DNA of 64,000 nucleotides, taken from contig OZ245838.1 in assembly GCA_965228735.1 (NCBI GenBank), positions 5,440,001 through 5,504,000 on the forward strand, given 5' to 3'. This DNA is from Planctomycetota bacterium. GTDB taxonomy: Bacteria > Planctomycetota > UBA1135 > UBA2386. Shown here in pieces: positions 11,112 through 22,041 of the stretch. Made by a program: the position numbers and the translations under genes. The notes beneath the pieces were generated by a model. It saw nothing but the letters and a program-made list of their open reading frames with translations, had not been told where the DNA came from and did not search any database. Position 1 is the first letter of the stretch. Every line of letters starts with the position of its first letter.

Positions 11112-12629
<1,518 letters not shown>

Positions 12630-12771
12630 CCGCGGCACGATAGCACCTGATCTGCTGCGGCTCGCCGCATTCCGCGTGGCTTGGCTCCGGCCCCGCCGTC
12701 AGCTATCGTCGCGCCGCTGCCCGCACTCGCGCCTCGCGCGCGGGGTCTCCACTGCATTCCACGGAGCTGCT

Positions 12772-15414
12772 TTGCAACCGTCTCTGCTCGCGTGTTCGGC
12801 CATCGCCGCTGCGATGGTCCTGTCGTCGTCCCTGCCGGCCCAGTGGGTCACGTTCGTCGACGAGACCAGCACCCGCCTCGTCGCCAGTCCCGGCGTCGGC
12901 GTCAACGACCCCGAGGAGAAGGACTACGCCTGGGCCGACTTCGACCAGGACGGCGACACCGACCTCGTGTGCGTTCGCAAGCAGCCGTTCACGTCGACCG
13001 GCAAGTTCCCGAACGTGCTCTTCATGAACGAGAACGGCGTGCTCACCGATCGCACGGCGACGCTCGCGAGCGCGTCCACGGTGGCCGGCAGCAGCGGCTT
13101 CCTCGATGCGACCAACGATCGCGACGTCGTCGCCGTCGACGTCAACGGCGACGGGTGGATCGATCTCGTCACGGCGACGACGCTGACCCAGAACGACCCG
13201 CAGTACATCCGGGTGCCGCGCGTCTACATCAACCAGGGGCTCGATGCGCAGAACGTCTGGCAGGGTTTCCTGTACGACGACGTCACGCGCATCGACGACC
13301 TAGCCTACGGCTGGCAGGGCGAGCATCGCTTCTGCTCCGTCAGCGCGGGGGACATCGACGGCGATGGTGACGAGGACCTCTATTTCGGGGACTACGAGCA
13401 GGGTGGCAGTCGCAGCGTCGACGTCAACGACCGTCTGCTGATCAACGACGGCACCGGCTACTTCACCGACGAGTCAGCCCAGCGCATGTCGGTGGCGATG
13501 CTCGATTCGGACTTTGCGATGGCGTCGGCGATCGTCGACATGAACGGCGATGGCAAGCTCGACATCGTTCGGGACAACGCGCTCAGTCCACCACAGGCCG
13601 TCACAATCAGCTACAACGATACGTCGACCGAGGGGTTCTTCGGCTCCTACGAAACCGCCTACGGCGGCTTCGCGCCGTACCACTTCGCTGTCGGTGACCT
13701 CAACAACGACGGCCTGCCCGACCTCGTCGTCACGGACGACAACGCCGACCGGTACATGCTGCACGCCGGCAACGGGCCAAACGGGCTCGCGACGTTCTCG
13801 CCCTCGCGGACGTTCTCGTTCGTCGGTGGTGGCTCCGACGACGGGTTCGGCGGCAACAACCTGATCGTCGATCTCGACAACGACGGCTGGCGCGACGTGA
13901 TCATCACGGACGTCGACGTCGACGTGGCGAGCTCGGCGAACCGCCGGTGTCACATCTATCGCAACCTTGGCGACGCGCCGGACGTCACGCTGCAGGAGCA
14001 GCAGCAGGGCGGCTTCGTCTGCGGCATCAATACCGCGGATCTGCGCGGGTCGCACGACGTCGCGGTGTTCGACATCGACGGCGACGGCTGGCAGGACATG
14101 GTCCTCGGTCGCGAGGTCGGGACGCGGGTCTTCATGAACGACCCGCCTGCCGGGCTCGCCATCGCGTATCCGCTCGGGCTGGTCGCGCGAGTCGCGCCGG
14201 GGACGATCACGACGCTGTACGTGAACGCCACCGGCATCGGGTCCGTCGTGCCGGCGGCCGGCACCGGCGAGTTGCACTACTCGATCAACGGTTCGTCCTT
14301 CCAGTCGATCCCGATGCGCGACGAGGGGCCGGGTCAACAATCGGGGAGGCTCTATTCGGTCAAGCTGCCGCGTCTGCTGACGTGCGGCGACCGCATGCGC
14401 TTCTACATCTCGATCGACGACCAGCAGTCGACGGCCTGGCTCGATCCGGTCGGCGGCGCGGCCGCGGCCTACGAGGTCGTCGCGCAGACCGGCGAGTCGG
14501 TGATCTACGAGAACAACTTCGAGAACGGTGCGGTCGGCTGGACCGTCGTGAACGACCCGTCGCTGACGACGGGCGCGTGGGAGGTCGCCGATCCCAATCC
14601 GACCGTGTTGAGCGGGCAGATCGCGGCGCCGGCCGACGACGCGGAGGCCGGGGCGGCGTCGTTCTGCTTCGTGACGGAGAACGGGCCGGTGGGCAACACG
14701 TCCGCGGGCCTCGCCGACGTCGACGGTGGGCCGACCGATCTGATCTCGCCCGTTTTCGACCTCGACGGCGCCGACGGCACGCTCACCTACTCGCGCTGGT
14801 TCTTCTCGAGCGGGGCCGACACGCTCGACGTCGCGATCACGGCGGACGGCAGCAGCTGGGTGCCGCTCGAGGCCGTGACCGGCAGCGGCAACAACAACTG
14901 GTCCGTGCGCACGTTCCGCGTCAGCGACTTCGTGACGCCGTCGGCGACGATGCAGGTCCGGTTCCGCACGCACGACGTGGACCCCGGTTCGATCGTGGAG
15001 GCCGGCATCGACGTGTTCCGGGTCACCGGGTTCCTCTGCGAGTGCGCGCCGATCTGTCAGCTCGACGTCGGGCTCAAGGGGCCCGGCACCGCGAACTTCG
15101 GCGGCGAGGTCGACCTGCCGCCGAACGGGCCGCCAGCCGTCGACTTCGTCGTCACGGGCGCACCGGCCGGCGCCGCGGGCTGGATCCTCGCGAGCTTCGA
15201 TCTCGACCCGGCGCCGCTGCTCGGCGGTCGGGTCATCGATCTCGAACCGTTCGTGATCCTGCCGTTCATCGCCGACGGTAACGGCGAGTACGGCCTCTAC
15301 GACGTGACCGGCGGGTTCGGCCCGCTGCGGTTCTACGCGCAGAGCGTCTACCTGCTCGGCAGCGCTCCGTTCGGCGTCGGCATCACCAACGGTCTCCGCA
15401 TCGACTTCCCGTAA
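12772..15414 (+). CDS. Secreted FG-GAP/VCBS repeat protein with C-terminal beta domains
   Basis: About 7 D.D.DG..D repeats. TTG start at 12772 follows GGAG and gives a signal peptide (alternative ATG at 12814). Confidence 0.8.
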   Translation: MQPSLLACSAIAAAMVLSSSLPAQWVTFVDETSTRLVASPGVGVNDPEEKDYAWADFDQDGDTDLVCVRKQPFTSTGKFPNVLFMNENGVLTDRTATLASASTVAGSSGFLDATNDRDVVAVDVNGDGWIDLVTATTLTQNDPQYIRVPRVYINQGLDAQNVWQGFLYDDVTRIDDLAYGWQGEHRFCSVSAGDIDGDGDEDLYFGDYEQGGSRSVDVNDRLLINDGTGYFTDESAQRMSVAMLDSDFAMASAIVDMNGDGKLDIVRDNALSPPQAVTISYNDTSTEGFFGSYETAYGGFAPYHFAVGDLNNDGLPDLVVTDDNADRYMLHAGNGPNGLATFSPSRTFSFVGGGSDDGFGGNNLIVDLDNDGWRDVIITDVDVDVASSANRRCHIYRNLGDAPDVTLQEQQQGGFVCGINTADLRGSHDVAVFDIDGDGWQDMVLGREVGTRVFMNDPPAGLAIAYPLGLVARVAPGTITTLYVNATGIGSVVPAAGTGELHYSINGSSFQSIPMRDEGPGQQSGRLYSVKLPRLLTCGDRMRFYISIDDQQSTAWLDPVGGAAAAYEVVAQTGESVIYENNFENGAVGWTVVNDPSLTTGAWEVADPNPTVLSGQIAAPADDAEAGAASFCFVTENGPVGNTSAGLADVDGGPTDLISPVFDLDGADGTLTYSRWFFSSGADTLDVAITADGSSWVPLEAVTGSGNNNWSVRTFRVSDFVTPSATMQVRFRTHDVDPGSIVEAGIDVFRVTGFLCECAPICQLDVGLKGPGTANFGGEVDLPPNGPPAVDFVVTGAPAGAAGWILASFDLDPAPLLGGRVIDLEPFVILPFIADGNGEYGLYDVTGGFGPLRFYAQSVYLLGSAPFGVGITNGLRIDFP

Positions 15415-15432
15415 GCCTGCCCGGCTCTCGCC

Positions 15433-17286
15433 ATGATTCCTCATCCGTTCACGTCGCTGGCCGTCGGGCTCGCGGCCACGCTCGCGCTGCCGGCACAGAA
15501 CGTGCCGCAGCCGCCGATGGGCGCCCCGCTGCACGGTCTCGACGCCGCGCAGCGCGCCCGGTTCGACGCCGGCGACGCCGACTTCCGCAAGACCTTCCAG
15601 AACGCCGAAGGTCTCGGGCCGATCTTCAACGACCAGTCGTGCGCGACGTGCCACAACAACCCGGTCGGTGGGCCGGGCTCGATCACGGTCACGCGCTTCG
15701 GCCTCTACGATCCGAAGGGTGTCGGCTGGGATCCGTTGACGGCGCTCGGCGGGTCGCTGCTGCAGGCCGCGGCGATCGATCCGGCGTGCGTCGAGAGCCT
15801 GCCGAGCACCGCGACCAATATCGCGCAGCGCGTGACGACGTCGACGCTCGGCATCGGACTCATCGAGGCGATCCCGGATGCGGACCTGCTGTTCCTCGTC
15901 AACAACCCGCCGAGCCCGGCCGTCAGCGGGCGGGCGCACATGGTCGTGCCGCTCGAGGCGCCGACCGGGCCGGCGCGCGTCGGCCGCTTCGGGTGGAAGT
16001 CGCAGCTCGCTACGGTGCTGAGCTTCTCCGGCGACGCGACGCTGATGGAGATCGGGATCACCAACCGGCTCGTGCCGCAGGAGCAGGCGCCGAACGGCAA
16101 CACGGCGTTGCTCGCCGCGTGGGACAACGTGCCCGACCCCGAGGACGGCCCCGATCCGCAGGGGCTGCACTTCATCGATCGCGTGACCGACTTCCAGCGC
16201 TACCTCGCGCCGCCGCCGCAGACTCCGCGGTCCGGCATGACGGGCGAGCAGCTGTTCGTCAGCGTCGGCTGCGCCGACTGTCACGTGCAGAGCTTCACGA
16301 CGAGCAGTGATCCGGCGCTCGAACCGGCGCTGCGTGGTCGCGCGATCCGGCCGTACTCGGACTTCCTCCTGCACGACATGGGGTTGAACAGCGACTTCAT
16401 CGGGCAGGGCCTCGCGGAGCTGCAGGAGATGCGGACGCCGCCGCTCTGGGGCGTGCGCACGCGCGACCCGATGTGGCATGACGGGCGCGTCGCGGGCGGC
16501 ACGTTCGAGGACCGGATCCGCGGTGCCGGTGGTGCGGTCGCGTTGCACGACGCGTTCGGCAGCGAAGGTGCGGCGTCGGCGCAGGCGTTCTTCGCGCTCG
16601 CGCTCGCGGACCAGCAGCGGATCGTCGCGTTCCTCGATTCGCTCGGTCGCCGGGAGTTCGACGGCAACGGCGATGGCGAGCTCGACCACGACGACTGGGT
16701 CATGTTCGTCAGCGCGCGCGGCGGGTCGGTGACCCCTGATGATCCGCGCGCGGTGTTCGACTTCGATCAGGACGGCGACGTCGACAACGACGACTACGAT
16801 GTCTTCGCGACCGTCTACGAGGAGGACTGCAACGGCAACCTCGTGAGCGATCTGCTCGACATCCAGAACGGCACGAGCACCGACGTCAACTTCAACGGGC
16901 GGCCGGACGAGTGTGAGCACTGTCAGACGGACCTCGGTCAGGGCGGCGGCGGCACGGCCGCGCTGTCGATCTGCGGCGACGATCTGACGACCGCGAGTTC
17001 GCGGGCCGCGCTGCGCATCACCGGCGCTGCGCCGGGGGCGACGGTCGTCTTCGTCGCGGCGCTCACCCAGAACCCGTGGGAGATCGTGCCGGGCGAGTTC
17101 GTCGTCCCGACGGTGCCGGCGCCCGTCGCCGTGTTCGTCGGCTCCGCGGACGGCAGCGGCGCGTTCTTCCAGCTCGTCGGCGGCAACGCCGGCGGCACGG
17201 CCGTGACCTGGGTGTTCCAGGCCGGCACGCTCGACGCGGGCGTCCTCGACATGACGAACGCGTTGGCGGTCGAGCTGTCGTATTGA
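15433..17286 (+). CDS. Di-heme oxidoreductase family protein (DUF1111) with EF-hand/dockerin-like Ca-binding motifs
   Basis: GLGP.FN..SCATCH, GRFGWK, GCADCH, YSDFLLHDMG, RTPPLWG, HDGR. C-terminal DGNGDGELD and DFDQDGDVD loops. Confidence 0.88.
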   Translation: MIPHPFTSLAVGLAATLALPAQNVPQPPMGAPLHGLDAAQRARFDAGDADFRKTFQNAEGLGPIFNDQSCATCHNNPVGGPGSITVTRFGLYDPKGVGWDPLTALGGSLLQAAAIDPACVESLPSTATNIAQRVTTSTLGIGLIEAIPDADLLFLVNNPPSPAVSGRAHMVVPLEAPTGPARVGRFGWKSQLATVLSFSGDATLMEIGITNRLVPQEQAPNGNTALLAAWDNVPDPEDGPDPQGLHFIDRVTDFQRYLAPPPQTPRSGMTGEQLFVSVGCADCHVQSFTTSSDPALEPALRGRAIRPYSDFLLHDMGLNSDFIGQGLAELQEMRTPPLWGVRTRDPMWHDGRVAGGTFEDRIRGAGGAVALHDAFGSEGAASAQAFFALALADQQRIVAFLDSLGRREFDGNGDGELDHDDWVMFVSARGGSVTPDDPRAVFDFDQDGDVDNDDYDVFATVYEEDCNGNLVSDLLDIQNGTSTDVNFNGRPDECEHCQTDLGQGGGGTAALSICGDDLTTASSRAALRITGAAPGATVVFVAALTQNPWEIVPGEFVVPTVPAPVAVFVGSADGSGAFFQLVGGNAGGTAVTWVFQAGTLDAGVLDMTNALAVELSY

Positions 17287-17293
17287 GCGCCGC

Positions 17294-20275
17294 ATGAGGT
17301 TGCTCGGCTCCCGGTCCTGGACCGCCCTCGCGGCCCTCGTCCTGGTCGCGCCGGCGATCGCGCAGAACCCGATCGCCGAACGGCTCGATCCACGAACGGA
17401 TCCCGAGTGGCGCAGCGAAGCGCTCGCGGCGGCGGCGGGCGAGCGGTTGCAGTCGACCCTCACGGATGCGCTGGGACGGGCGGCGGACGAGGCGGCGACC
17501 CTGCCGGCAGTGCGAGAATGGGCCCGGCCGTTGCGCGGCGCCGTCGTCCGCACCAAGGTCAAGCTGTTGTCGGCGGATGTCGACGGCGCGACGTTGACGA
17601 CCCGCGCGCGGATCGAGGCCTTCGGGCAGCGCGCATCGGGAGCGGGGGCGCCGCCCCCATTGCAGTCGCCCGCCACGCAATCGCCACTCGTGCAGTCGGT
17701 CGCGAACTGGCGCGTCACGTGGTCGATCGGCGAGAACGGCGAGCTCGCGCTGGAATCGATCGCGGCGGTTGGCAGCGAGCGGGCCGCCGCCGAACGCGTC
17801 TGGTTCGCCGAGGTGACGGCTGCGGTGCTCGGCCCCGAGCTGGCAGGGAAGCCGGAGCTGCGCTTCGGCGGCAGCTACTGGGCGGGCCGCGTGGATCACG
17901 TCGGTGAGTCCGCGCGGATGGGGCACCAGGGCGTGGCGGTCGGCGACGTCGATGGCGACGGTCGCGAGGACGTCTACGTCGGGATGCCGAACGGTCTGCC
18001 CAACCTGCTGCTGCGGCGACGCGCCGACGGCACGTTCGAGGACATCGCGGCGGCTGCCGGCGTCGCGTTCCTCGACGACACCAAGGGTGTGCTGCTGCTC
18101 GACCTCGACGGCGACGGCGACGACGATCTCGTCCTGGCGATCGGCCCGTTCCTGCTGCTCTGCGATGGCGACGGCGCGGGTCGCTTCCGCCCGGCGCATC
18201 GGCTGCAGGCGCCGACGGGTGGCGCGTTCTATCACGTCACTGCTGTCGACTTCGATCGCGACGGCGACCTCGACCTCTACGGCTGCCGCTACGTCGAGGA
18301 GGCCTACGCCGAGAGCGTGCCGTTGCCGTATCACGCCGCGGAGAACGGGCCTCGCAACCTGCTGTTCCGCAACGACGGCGAAGGCGGCTTCACGGACGTG
18401 ACCGCGGCGGTCGGCCTCGACGCCAACAACACGCGCTTCAGCACGGCGGCGGCGTGGGCCGACTACGACGACGACGGCGACGTGGACCTCTACGTCAGCA
18501 ACGACTTCGGCCGCAACAATCTCTATCGCAATGACGACGGGCGCTTCGTGGATGTCGCAGCCGACGCCGGGGTCGAGGATCAGGGTGCCGGCATGGGGGT
18601 CGCGTTCGCCGACGTCGACGCGGACGGCGACCTCGATCTCTACGTGACCAACATGTTCTCGTCGGCGGGTCACCGCATCGGTTCGCTGCCGGCGTTCCAG
18701 GCCGGCATGAACGCGGCGGAACGCGGCGCGCTGCTGGGCCTGAGCCGCGGCAACTCGCTGTTCCTCAACGCGGGTGACGGCACGTTCGTGCGGGCGCCGG
18801 ACGCCGGTGTGCGCATGGGGCGGTGGGGCTGGGGCGCGCGCTTCGTCGACCTCGACACCGACGGGCTGCCCGACATCGTCGCGCCCAACGGCTTCCTCAC
18901 GGGGCGGCCCGAGGCGGCGGACTGTTGAAGCCTGTTCTGGCGGCGCGTGGCGTCGCAGACCCCATCGACGGTCGAGGTGCTGCAGGCGGGCGTTGCCGCG
19001 CCGGCGACGCTCGACGAGTACCTGCGCGGTTGGGCTGCGCTCGCTGAGCTGATCGAGCGCGACGTGTCATGGAGCGGGCACGAGCGGAACTGCGCGTTCT
19101 CGAATCGCGGTGATGGCACCTTCGCGGACGTCTCCGCGATCTCGGGTCTCGACTTCGACGACGACGGGCGCGCGTGCGTCGCGCTCGACCTCGACCAGGA
19201 CGGCGACCTCGACCTGCTGTTCAAGAACCGCTCGGGCCCGCAGCTGCGGGTGCTCGCGAACGAACAATTCGATGACCGGTCCGCGCTCGCCGTCCGGCTC
19301 GTCGACCCGACGTGCAAGAACCGCGACGCGATCGGCGCGCGGGTCACGGTGCGCGCTGGCGATCACGGACTGGTGCGCTTTCTCGTGGCCGGCGACGGTT
19401 ACCTCTCGCAGTCGTCACGGTGGTTGCACTTCGGTTCGGTCGACGCGACCTCGGGGTTCGAGCTCACGGTGCGTTGGCCCGATGGCGAATCCGAACGGAT
19501 CACCAAGCAGCAGTTCGACGCGGACCGTCAGTTGGCGCGGCTCACGATCGTGCGCGGCCGCAGCGCGACGTGGAGCAGTGCCGCGACCCGCACGCCCTTG
19601 CCGACGACCTCGGGAGCTGCCAAGCCCGCCCCGCCCGATCGCGAGGCGATCGTGTTACGGAACCCGCTGCCGCTCTCGCCGACGCTGCAGCGCGCCGCGT
19701 TCCGCGGTCCGCCGCGGCGACCCGCGCTCCTTGGCCTGTGGGCGATGGGCAACGCCGAGAGCGAGCGGGCGATCACGGCGTTCGCGGGTTCGCAGGCTGC
19801 GCTGGAAACCGTTGCCGTCGACGTCGTGCTGCTCGGCCTGCACGACGGTGCTGAGCAGGCCGCGGCCGCGCGCCGGTTCGTCGAGCTCGCGGGCGACCGC
19901 ACGCCGGGCATGCGGCAGCGGCCGGCGAGTGCGGCGATGCGCGAGTGCATCGACGCGCTCGTGACCGCGATCGTGGGGCCGAGCGATGCCGCGACGGAGC
20001 CTGCGACGTATCTGCTCGTCGATGGGCAGGGGCGCGCTCAGGTCCTCTATCGCGCGGCGCCGACCGTCGCCGAGCTGCGCTACGACGTCGCGCGATTCGG
20101 TGGTGCGCAGGTCGATCCGACGCGCCGCAGCCGCCGATCCGGTCGCTGGGCGTTCGCCGTGCCGCGTGCTCTCGGTCCGCTCGTGCGGGACCTTGCCGCG
20201 CGCGGGCTGCGGCGGGACGCCGCGTTCTATCAGCAGCTCGATGCGGCCCGCCGCGGCGACCAGCCGCCCAAGTAG
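17294..20275 (+). CDS. CRTAC1/ASPIC-UnbV-like FG-GAP protein with in-frame UGA (candidate selenocysteine at residue 545) and a degenerate C-terminal redoxin-like domain
   Basis: ORFs 17294-18928 and 18947-20275 are in the same frame, separated only by TGA 18926-18928. Readthrough gives ...NGFLTGRPEAADC-U-SLFWRRVASQ...SWSGHERNCAFSNRGDGTFADVS, a continuous CRTAC1-type architecture. A hairpin follows the UGA. Confidence 0.7.
18936..18959 (+). promoter_or_regulatory. Candidate bacterial SECIS hairpin
   Basis: UCU(G)GCGGCGC-GUG-GCGUCGC-AGA: 10 pairs with one bulged G. The G-containing loop begins 18 nt after the UGA. Confidence 0.55.
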
Positions 20276-20361: not shown

Positions 20362-22041
20362 ATGCGACCCAGCACTCTCGTATTCCCGACCATCGCGTTC
20401 GCTGCCGCCTTCGCTTGCCCTGCCGTGGCGCAGCGGGTCGCCGAGGTCGAGCCCAACAACACGAGCGCGGCCGCGCAGGCAATCGTTCTCGGATCGCAGG
20501 TCGACGCAACGCTGGCGGCGGGCGAGGAGGACTGGTTCGAGTTCTCGACGACGGGCGGCAACGCCGTCCTGATCTCGCACGGGCCCACGGACGTCGACAC
20601 GGTCTTCGAGCTGTTCGACTCGACGGGCACCACGCTGCTCGCAGTGAACGATGACACCGACGCGTTCTTCAGCGCGCTCAGCGTCGATCTCGCTGCCGGC
20701 ACCTACCAGCTGCGTGTCACCGGCTGGGGCCCGACGACGGCGGGACCCTACCAGCTCGAGCTCGGTGAGGTCGCGACGGTCGGCAACACGGGCACGGAGA
20801 ACGAGCCGAACGACTCGCTCGGGCAGGCCGATCCGTTGGCGGGCGGCGACGTCATCGATGGCGTTCTCGGCAGCGGCGACGAGGACTGGTACCGCATCGA
20901 CCTTACGGCCGCGGCGACCGGCGTGTGGTTCGAGATCGCCGAAGGAGCCGCGCCCTGGGTCAGCAGCCACCGGTGGGAGCTGCGTGATTCCGGCGGTGGG
21001 CTGCTCGGCCCGACGACCGAGTTCGGGCCCAACGCGGGCGACAGCAGCCCGTCCGAGATCCGGTCGTCGACCGTGCGATCGTGGCCGGCCGGAACGTACT
21101 ACCTGGTGATCAAGGAGAGCTCGTTCCCGCTCGGTTTCGGCAACGCGATTCCGCAGGGTGGCTACCGCCTGCGCCTCGCGACGATGCCGGTGACCGGCGC
21201 GCCGGCGTCCGAGTCCGAGCCGAACGACACCGTGCAGCAGGCGAACGCCGTGACGCCCGGGTCGAGCATCGCCGGCTCGATCTCGGCGTCAGGCGGCGGC
21301 GATCCCGTCGACATCTACGGACCGTTCGTGATCTCGGGGCCGACGGTGATGCAGTTCCAGACGCGCCAGGGCAGCAGCGGGCCGTTGCTCGACTCGACGA
21401 TCCGGCTGCTCGACGACGATGGCAACACCGTCCAGCAGTGGACGGTCGGCAACCTCGCGAGTCCGACGAGCCACGCCCGCGCGACGGTCGTGTTCTCCCG
21501 CGTCGAGACCTACTACCTCGAGGTGCGCTCGCCCGGCAACGGAGCGGGGCAATCGGGCAGCTACGTGCTCGAGGTCGGGGCCGCGGCGTCGCTGCACACG
21601 GCGGCGAGCTACGACCTCGCCGAGGTCAACGGCATCTGTCTCGGCAGCAACGGGCTGCGGCCGACGTTGACGGTCGACAGCCCCGGCGAACGACCCGTGC
21701 TCGGCACGAACATGAGTCGGACGGTGGAGTTCCTGCCCCCGCTGTCGCCGTTCTTCCTCGTCGAGGGATTGTCGGACGAGATCGGGCTCGGCTCGATCCC
21801 GCTGCCCTACGACCTCGGACCGCTCGGCGCGCCGGACTGCGGCGTGTTCGTCGATCCGCTCGCGAATCAGCTGATCCTCGGCAGCCCGTCCGGAACCGTC
21901 GCGCTCGACAACCGCATGCCGACCTCGGTCGTGTTCCGTGGCGTGCCGATCTACGAGCAGGTGGTCGCGCTCGATCTGGCCGCGAACGCACTCGGGATCA
22001 CGGCGTCGAACTACGCCCGCAAGCTGCTCGGCGATCGGTAG
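20362..22041 (+). CDS. Secreted protein with three PPC (pre-peptidase C-terminal)-like domains
   Basis: Signal peptide, three E.EPN(N/D) starts, D.D.(F/Y) and G.Y.L motifs, plus the shared C-terminal domain. Confidence 0.8.
   Translation: MRPSTLVFPTIAFAAAFACPAVAQRVAEVEPNNTSAAAQAIVLGSQVDATLAAGEEDWFEFSTTGGNAVLISHGPTDVDTVFELFDSTGTTLLAVNDDTDAFFSALSVDLAAGTYQLRVTGWGPTTAGPYQLELGEVATVGNTGTENEPNDSLGQADPLAGGDVIDGVLGSGDEDWYRIDLTAAATGVWFEIAEGAAPWVSSHRWELRDSGGGLLGPTTEFGPNAGDSSPSEIRSSTVRSWPAGTYYLVIKESSFPLGFGNAIPQGGYRLRLATMPVTGAPASESEPNDTVQQANAVTPGSSIAGSISASGGGDPVDIYGPFVISGPTVMQFQTRQGSSGPLLDSTIRLLDDDGNTVQQWTVGNLASPTSHARATVVFSRVETYYLEVRSPGNGAGQSGSYVLEVGAAASLHTAASYDLAEVNGICLGSNGLRPTLTVDSPGERPVLGTNMSRTVEFLPPLSPFFLVEGLSDEIGLGSIPLPYDLGPLGAPDCGVFVDPLANQLILGSPSGTVALDNRMPTSVVFRGVPIYEQVVALDLAANALGITASNYARKLLGDR

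Follow-up and report, generated by a model that had tools for sequence, protein, structure and literature searches.

A CRTAC1-like propeller protein of Planctomycetota with a probable selenocysteine at a conserved in-frame TGA

The window analyzed here is a stretch of 64,000 nucleotides of planctomycete DNA (contig OZ245838.1). On its plus strand, which carries all of the features described below, a frame of 993 codons runs from an ATG at position 17294 to a TAG ending at 20275 (17294–20275). Translation shows a single in-frame TGA at 18926–18928, in the context GAC TGT TGA AGC CTG TTC TGG, which reads D-C-U-S-L-F-W, followed by an arginine, when TGA is taken as selenocysteine (Sec). Under table 11 the frame is read as two ORFs of 544 and 442 aa. 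The gene lies in a same-strand run (12394–17286 and 20362–22041, +) that contains an FG-GAP protein and a di-haem oxidoreductase (DHOR, a putative peroxidase) upstream and a PPC-domain protein downstream. The DHOR gene ends 7 nt before the ATG, and its product may be a redox partner. The gene order of the run is conserved in a genome of the same genus (G321).

The interruption of the frame, noted in a first-pass annotation of the sequence, was borne out by the translation and by contigs from four studies. Logan contigs of four runs, one from each study, showed no differing letter at the gene. Three of them span the whole stretch and are near-identical, possibly the source of this DNA; the fourth, from a coral metagenome run, covers 18724–19262. 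Because the contigs of the four runs agree, the TGA is not an assembly error. A further metagenome contig (L127), which may not be independent, is 99.98% identical over 4654 nt. The syntenic ortholog in G321, which is in two parts on two contigs joined by synteny, has the same Cys codon followed by TGA, and its divergence from the window copy is of the coding type on both sides of the TGA.

The N terminus of the predicted protein is a probable signal peptide (aa 1–23, 17294–17362), judged by eye; pLDDT is low at residues 1–22, and many homologues have similar hydrophobic N termini. The 993-residue protein is probably exported. The domain that follows (about aa 35–167, 17396–17794) is predicted to be NTF2/cystatin-like (AF2 pLDDT 86.7) and carries Lys90 (17561–17563), a residue co-conserved with Sec. 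Its best fold match was LinA (3a76; VIA-align Z 8.8, rmsd 4.0, 120 aligned residues), a middling Z, and the match list consisted mostly of NTF2-like chains, many at Z 6.5–8.3. No Pfam match was found for this domain, and the assignment of an NTF2-like fold is suggestive. The FG-GAP β-propeller (aa 169–657, 17798–19264), identified by Pfam FG-GAP_3 and by fold match, spans the TGA and contains eight Dx[DN]xDG loops, which are putative calcium-binding sites. A helical insertion in the propeller (about aa 533–598, 18890–19087; DSSP helices 544–551, 559–564, and 571–588) bears three residues of interest: Cys544 (TGT, 18923–18925), vicinal to Sec and replaced by Leu in most homologues according to the alignment and the tree; the putative Sec545 itself (18926–18928); and Ser594 in a W-S-G motif (19073–19075), co-conserved with Sec. 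Cys600, in the motif HERNC (19091–19093), is enriched in Sec forms. The ASPIC/UnbV domain (aa 679–742, 19328–19519) matches PF07593 with an E value of 7.5e-14.

The C-terminal part (about aa 785–936, 19646–20101) is a degenerate TlpA/AhpC-type thioredoxin-fold domain, recognized by homology to relatives. It shares 46% identity with the CxxC-bearing segment of the same-genus ortholog (L160), and one relative (P0131) matches AhpC-TSA in Pfam; no meaningful Pfam match was obtained for the segment of the window copy itself. In the alignment, N820-A-E-S823 (19751–19762) replaces the C-x-x-C of the family, with the same letters in the contigs. The identification of the gene as an FG-GAP/ASPIC-UnbV, CRTAC1-like protein was thus upheld by the two Pfam matches and by the fold match to CRTAC1; the earlier domain picture was correct for the propeller and missed the thioredoxin-like domain at the C terminus.

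The structure of the read-through protein was predicted with Cys modeled in place of Sec. As had been proposed for a check, a single confident fold was obtained that spans the codon (AF2 pLDDT 91.5, pTM 0.93). Residues 167–756 match murine CRTAC1 (9etn) across the TGA with Z 36.4 and rmsd 2.3 Å over 454 aligned residues, and the match at the sequence level has an E value of 3.6e-18. The match to CRTAC1 across the codon indicates that the two halves form one propeller plus an ASPIC/UnbV domain. No NCBIfam model was found for the read-through protein. In the predicted structure, residue 545 opens the helix 544–551 and lies in the insertion between two propeller strands; the TGA is therefore not in a blade strand, and its placement inside a propeller blade in the first-pass annotation is corrected to the start of a helix in the insertion. 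The propeller-plus-ASPIC fold is shared with CRTAC1 and with bacterial FG-GAP-ASPIC/UnbV proteins, to which the protein of the window adds the NTF2-like N terminus, the Sec-bearing helical insertion, and the thioredoxin-fold C terminus.

A six-frame search of the class gave 320 matches in 132 of 201 genomes. Among the 150 matches listed of these 320, one TGA was present in 128, no TGA in 22, and TAA or TAG in none. In the phylum sample of 301 genomes, nine of which are common to both samples, one TGA was present in 62 of 70 matches and, again, TAA or TAG in none. In the translated loci the TGA falls at the same column. Among the best 120 of 6205 protein matches, 46 stop exactly before this column, a sense residue stands there in 59, and 15 could not be parsed by motif. 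The source names of the homologues point to Planctomycetota, and the stop-ended halves are also labeled Phycisphaerae and Acidobacteriota. The TGA is thus conserved in other Planctomycetota: more than 100 homologous matches carry it, so it is not peculiar to one genome, and nothing in the listed matches suggests a pair of genes split by TAA or TAG, the two findings that had been named as contrary to a selenoprotein. The number of matches per genome in the class reaches at most 7. Only 2 of 39 other genomes of the taxonomic family to which the window belongs have a match, whereas nearly all genomes of two sister families do (96 of 109 and 31 of 35). In one TGA copy (L020, G172:C1) the frame ends 178 codons past the TGA, probably through a frameshift or an assembly error.

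Downstream of the TGA lies a candidate bacterial SECIS (bSECIS) core (18940–18956), a 7-bp stem closed by a GUG loop (18947–18949), which was assigned by folding, conservation, and a recoding test. The core, GCGGCGC-GUG-GCGUCGC, begins 11 nt after the UGA and has a folding energy of −10.2 kcal/mol; its loop, 18 nt after the UGA, is also the GTG start codon that gene callers assign to the downstream half. The strong hairpin reported earlier at 7 nt corresponds to a longer stem beginning at 18935. Its GUG loop was confirmed; the conserved core starts at 11 nt, and its energy alone is within chance in this genome of 69% GC (z from −1.5 to +0.65 for the single sequence, and 8% under synonymous recoding). 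The significance of the hairpin comes from its conservation across homologues and not from its own energy. Indeed, when the protein was held fixed and codons were redrawn from each gene's own usage, a complete 6-bp stem at 11 nt was expected in 1.9 of 63 TGA loci and was observed in 57, and in the sense-codon loci it was complete in 2 of 22, with 1.1 expected. The six stem pairs were formed in 365 of 378 cells of the 63 TGA loci versus 78 of 132 cells of the 22 sense-codon loci; kinship among loci inflates these stem counts, and the contrast between TGA and sense loci is large. As the proposed test of covariation had anticipated, pairs change on both sides of the stem across the TGA loci: one pair is A-U in 34 and G-C in 27, and another occurs as G-U, A-U, G-C, C-G, and U-A. 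A nonsense mutation or a sequencing error, to which the ordinariness of the single hairpin at this GC content would lend itself, can be regarded as already refuted by the conservation data and has next to no probability, since the same codon recurs in four runs, in the syntenic ortholog, and in more than 100 homologous matches.

The geometry of the window hairpin agrees with all four bSECIS criteria given in section 5 of a 2026 review (PMC13188914). It resembles the in-ORF SECIS elements of bacteria, of the E. coli fdh type and the consensus in that review, in its 3-nt loop starting with G, its 7-bp stem, the 18 nt from UGA to loop, the −10.2 kcal/mol, and the presence of selABCD. It differs in that the carrier protein is outside the 119 families listed there and in the rarity of Cys homologues.

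The genome that contains the window possesses tRNA-Sec, a full-length selB, selA, and selD. Its selD is itself a TGA-bearing selenoprotein gene (G-S-G-U-A-A-K; L162:1531–1533, G000:C1 near 122800). Across the class, selB was dropped as a Sec marker because EF-Tu passes the cut-off; it was used solely for the full-length match in the window's own genome, and selA was used instead. As 194 of 201 class genomes carry selA, the gene is uninformative within the class, and the phylum sample was used, in which selA was found in 36 of 36 TGA-bearing genomes versus 221 of 301 overall, with kin not independent. Co-occurrence with Sec genes, another of the checks suggested at the outset, is thus observed. 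Three TGA-bearing genomes of the class had no selA match (G136, G147, and G166, 83%–85% complete). A genome-wide scan for TGA plus hairpin gave 774 candidates, mostly noise, and was not used as evidence; its sites include possible further selenoproteins in G000:C1 at 1967257(+), 3065085(+), 5872224(−), 7165651(−), and 7100746(−), and protein-like contexts among the sites are ERGY-U-CHQCGFDG, ANW-U-CIGMSPQF, PIT-U-CLSFCPQF, and GRQA-U-GMCRALV.

The UGA could alternatively be read without selenium, for example as Trp, with help from the hairpin, or the two halves could be coupled genes with a restart at the GTG of the loop. The rarity of Cys homologues and the GTG start placed 18 nt downstream by gene callers are compatible with such a scheme. 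Trp, however, is found at the column in none of 96 sense forms, TAA and TAG are absent from the listed matches, selA accompanies the TGA in every TGA-bearing phylum genome, and a break at this point would cut the propeller and leave a C-terminal part lacking a signal peptide. We consider this alternative very improbable. The conserved TGA, the covarying bSECIS, the Sec machinery, and the single fold across the codon together support the earlier proposal of an unusual selenoprotein family, and insertion of Sec at the TGA is, from these comparisons of sequence, very likely. SelB would read the hairpin 11 nt downstream, the TGA would be decoded as Sec, and one protein of 993 residues would result, composed of an NTF2-like domain, a CRTAC1-type propeller, an ASPIC/UnbV domain, and a thioredoxin-fold domain.

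To identify the residues that accompany Sec, 63 Sec forms were aligned with 96 sense forms, some of them duplicated between loci and protein records. Lys90 was found in 54 of 56 Sec forms versus 0 of 91 sense forms, and in all 37 database halves ending at the stop, a few of which may duplicate loci. For Ser594 the counts were 63 of 63 Sec forms and 18 of 96 sense forms; for Cys600 they were 43 of 63 and 8 of 96, respectively. Where the region was covered, the thioredoxin CxxC was found in 53 of 55 Sec forms versus 4 of 86 sense forms. At the Sec column itself, the sense residues were E 43, D 15, Q 11, S 8, A 7, N 4, G 3, C 3, I 1, and M 1, the I and M rows being possibly misaligned. Cys is thus rare, at 3 of 96 among the closest homologues sampled, and the usual Sec/Cys-pair test hardly gives a signal, which counts against the selenoprotein reading; in almost every selenoenzyme the Cys homologues outnumber the Sec forms (PMC13188914, section 8). 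In a midpoint-rooted FastTree tree of 163 sequences, the sense forms lie on several separate branches, which suggests that the joint loss of Sec, CxxC, Lys, and Ser was repeated. Since CxxC, Lys, and Ser are lost with Sec, the non-Sec homologues are probably non-catalytic.

We read this pattern as a composite redox site that the fused thioredoxin would recycle. Sec, predicted to open a helix of the propeller insertion, would be the likely redox nucleophile, with assistance from Lys90 and Ser594 and re-reduction by the CxxC of the fused thioredoxin. When Sec is lost, it usually gives way to Glu, Asp, or Gln and seldom to Cys. A thioredoxin-coupled redox cycle of this kind in the family is, on balance, rather probable. 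A different role for Sec, as a metal ligand, a selenium carrier, or a non-redox nucleophile in a surface-binding propeller, with the thioredoxin domain merely keeping it reduced, would account for the replacements, as most of the sense residues (69 of 96) are Glu, Asp, or Gln, which are possible metal ligands, and Cys is rare; to our knowledge, the CRTAC1 fold also has no known catalysis. The disappearance of Lys90, Ser594, and CxxC together with Sec is nevertheless more easily explained by the loss of an active site than by the exchange of a ligand, and this role appears rather unlikely.

The Cys-Sec dipeptide, to which the first-pass annotation drew attention, turned out to be a minority state in the family. 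Of the 63 TGA loci, 51 have Leu ahead of Sec, 9 have Cys, and 3 have Thr, the Cys share being inflated by targeted searches; in the 46 stop-ended database halves among the best 120 of 6205 protein matches, the last residue is Leu in 41 and Cys in 5. Pattern searches for Cys-TGA gave true family members at 4 of 6 genome loci, 2 of 30 loci in the class (the window copy and that of G321), and 4 of 38 in metagenomes; the other loci were chance matches and were dropped. Cys-TGA loci were found in Pirellulaceae. In the FastTree tree the Cys-Sec forms fall into three separate clades, one of which contains the window copy (support 0.96), so that Cys-Sec would have appeared on three or more occasions from Leu-Sec ancestry. 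Two metagenome loci with Cys-Sec (L098 and L123) form a divergent branch with the motif H-D-C-TGA-S-L-Y-W-R and about 210 residues after the TGA; like the Thr-Sec locus L157, they end before a thioredoxin domain. In L123 the N-terminal part is long, with 892 codons upstream.

The loss of CxxC seen in the window copy does not go with this dipeptide as a rule. CxxC is kept in four of the five Cys-Sec loci in which the thioredoxin domain is covered, and the idea of Cys-Sec as a general substitute for the thioredoxin CxxC was rejected because most Cys-Sec loci retain it. The other Sec form without CxxC, L147, is Leu-Sec. All nine of the closest C-terminal halves (P0125–P0133; P0134 is a near-duplicate) and the same-genus ortholog segment L160 keep CxxC, which places the loss in the recent past and in this species alone. 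The relatives carry the W-A-x-W-C-x-P-C motif of TlpA/ResA-type thioredoxins and match AhpC-TSA, Redoxin, ResA, or TlpA models; they differ from those proteins in that Sec lies outside the thioredoxin domain, and the window copy differs further in having N-A-E-S for C-x-x-C.

The window copy is a member of a small clade in which Cys544 was gained, and it has itself recently lost CxxC. Lacking CxxC, it would resolve its oxidized Sec through Cys544, or through Cys600, and depend on another protein for the reduction. That the copy still cycles through Cys544-Sec545 is put forward tentatively. It is quite conceivable that Sec is inserted and that the redox module of this copy is decaying, the loss of CxxC being a first step toward the Glu, Asp, or Gln forms and Cys544 a trait of the clade with no resolving role. 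The joint disappearance of CxxC and Sec on many branches, the retention of CxxC in the nine halves and the ortholog, and the failure to find a paralog with the same cap in the genome are in line with decay. Yet the copy retains Sec, a perfect 7-bp SECIS, Lys90, Ser594, Ser457, and Cys600, and its thioredoxin-fold segment is intact. That Cys544 made the loss of CxxC tolerable and that the copy is starting to decay are rated about equally.

Vicinal Cys-Sec is known from mammalian thioredoxin reductase. The CU selenoproteins SaoL, SaoC, HgcA, and MbdU are listed in Table 1 of PMC13188914; the window protein is similar to all of these in its vicinal Cys-Sec, with unrelated folds, and differs in that CU is a minority state in its family. 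The earlier statement that CRTAC1-type proteins are outside the classic selenoprotein families holds as far as the propeller family is absent from the 119 families of that table, and it is qualified by Table S9 of Kim et al., 2016 (PMC4807772), where four split ASPIC-UnbV/FG-GAP genes of the planctomycetes P1 and P2 appear as selenoprotein candidates. A SECIS was called in three of the four, and the homologous residue is given as Gly, not Cys. These candidates have the same domain labels and split genes as the family described here; the table rows give no motif or distribution and bring up neither a thioredoxin link nor a Cys-Sec variant, and "ASPIC" is absent from the main text. The Sec column is presumably the same. 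Searched by word, deep-Sep (PMC12013277; main text with four supplements) gave no mention of the family. Nothing relevant was found in further literature tying selenoproteins to ASPIC/UnbV, FG-GAP, or CRTAC1 in bacteria, or on the function of the family. Judged by these tables and texts, the family is one already glimpsed in print and neither described nor catalogued. The present analysis adds the link of Lys90 and Ser594 to Sec, the scarcity of Cys forms, and a Cys-Sec copy with a lost CxxC.

Taken as a whole, a Sec-decoded, probably exported redox protein, belonging to a family with a thioredoxin-coupled cycle and rewired in this copy, is likely to be the best explanation. A bolder reading, which we regard as speculative and on the unlikely side, is a large and uncatalogued family of exported selenoenzymes whose active site is built from three domains (the Lys of the NTF2-like domain, the Sec and Ser of the propeller insertion, and the CxxC of the thioredoxin), with chemistry that strictly needs selenium because Cys almost never replaces Sec, and in which the window copy has swapped its thioredoxin for a Cys-Sec center; if true, the window copy would be a natural experiment in rewired Sec recycling.

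The family is common in its lineage, with matches in 132 of 201 class genomes, and since databases halve the gene, a possibly major use of selenium in these bacteria would be invisible. That the place of a lost Sec is taken by Glu, Asp, or Gln and not by Cys would offer a direct test of why Sec persists where Cys usually suffices. K90, U545, S594, and CxxC provide a map for mutagenesis and raise the prospect of catalysis by a CRTAC1-type fold, and the window copy and its CxxC-bearing ortholog would form a natural pair for the study of Sec recycling.
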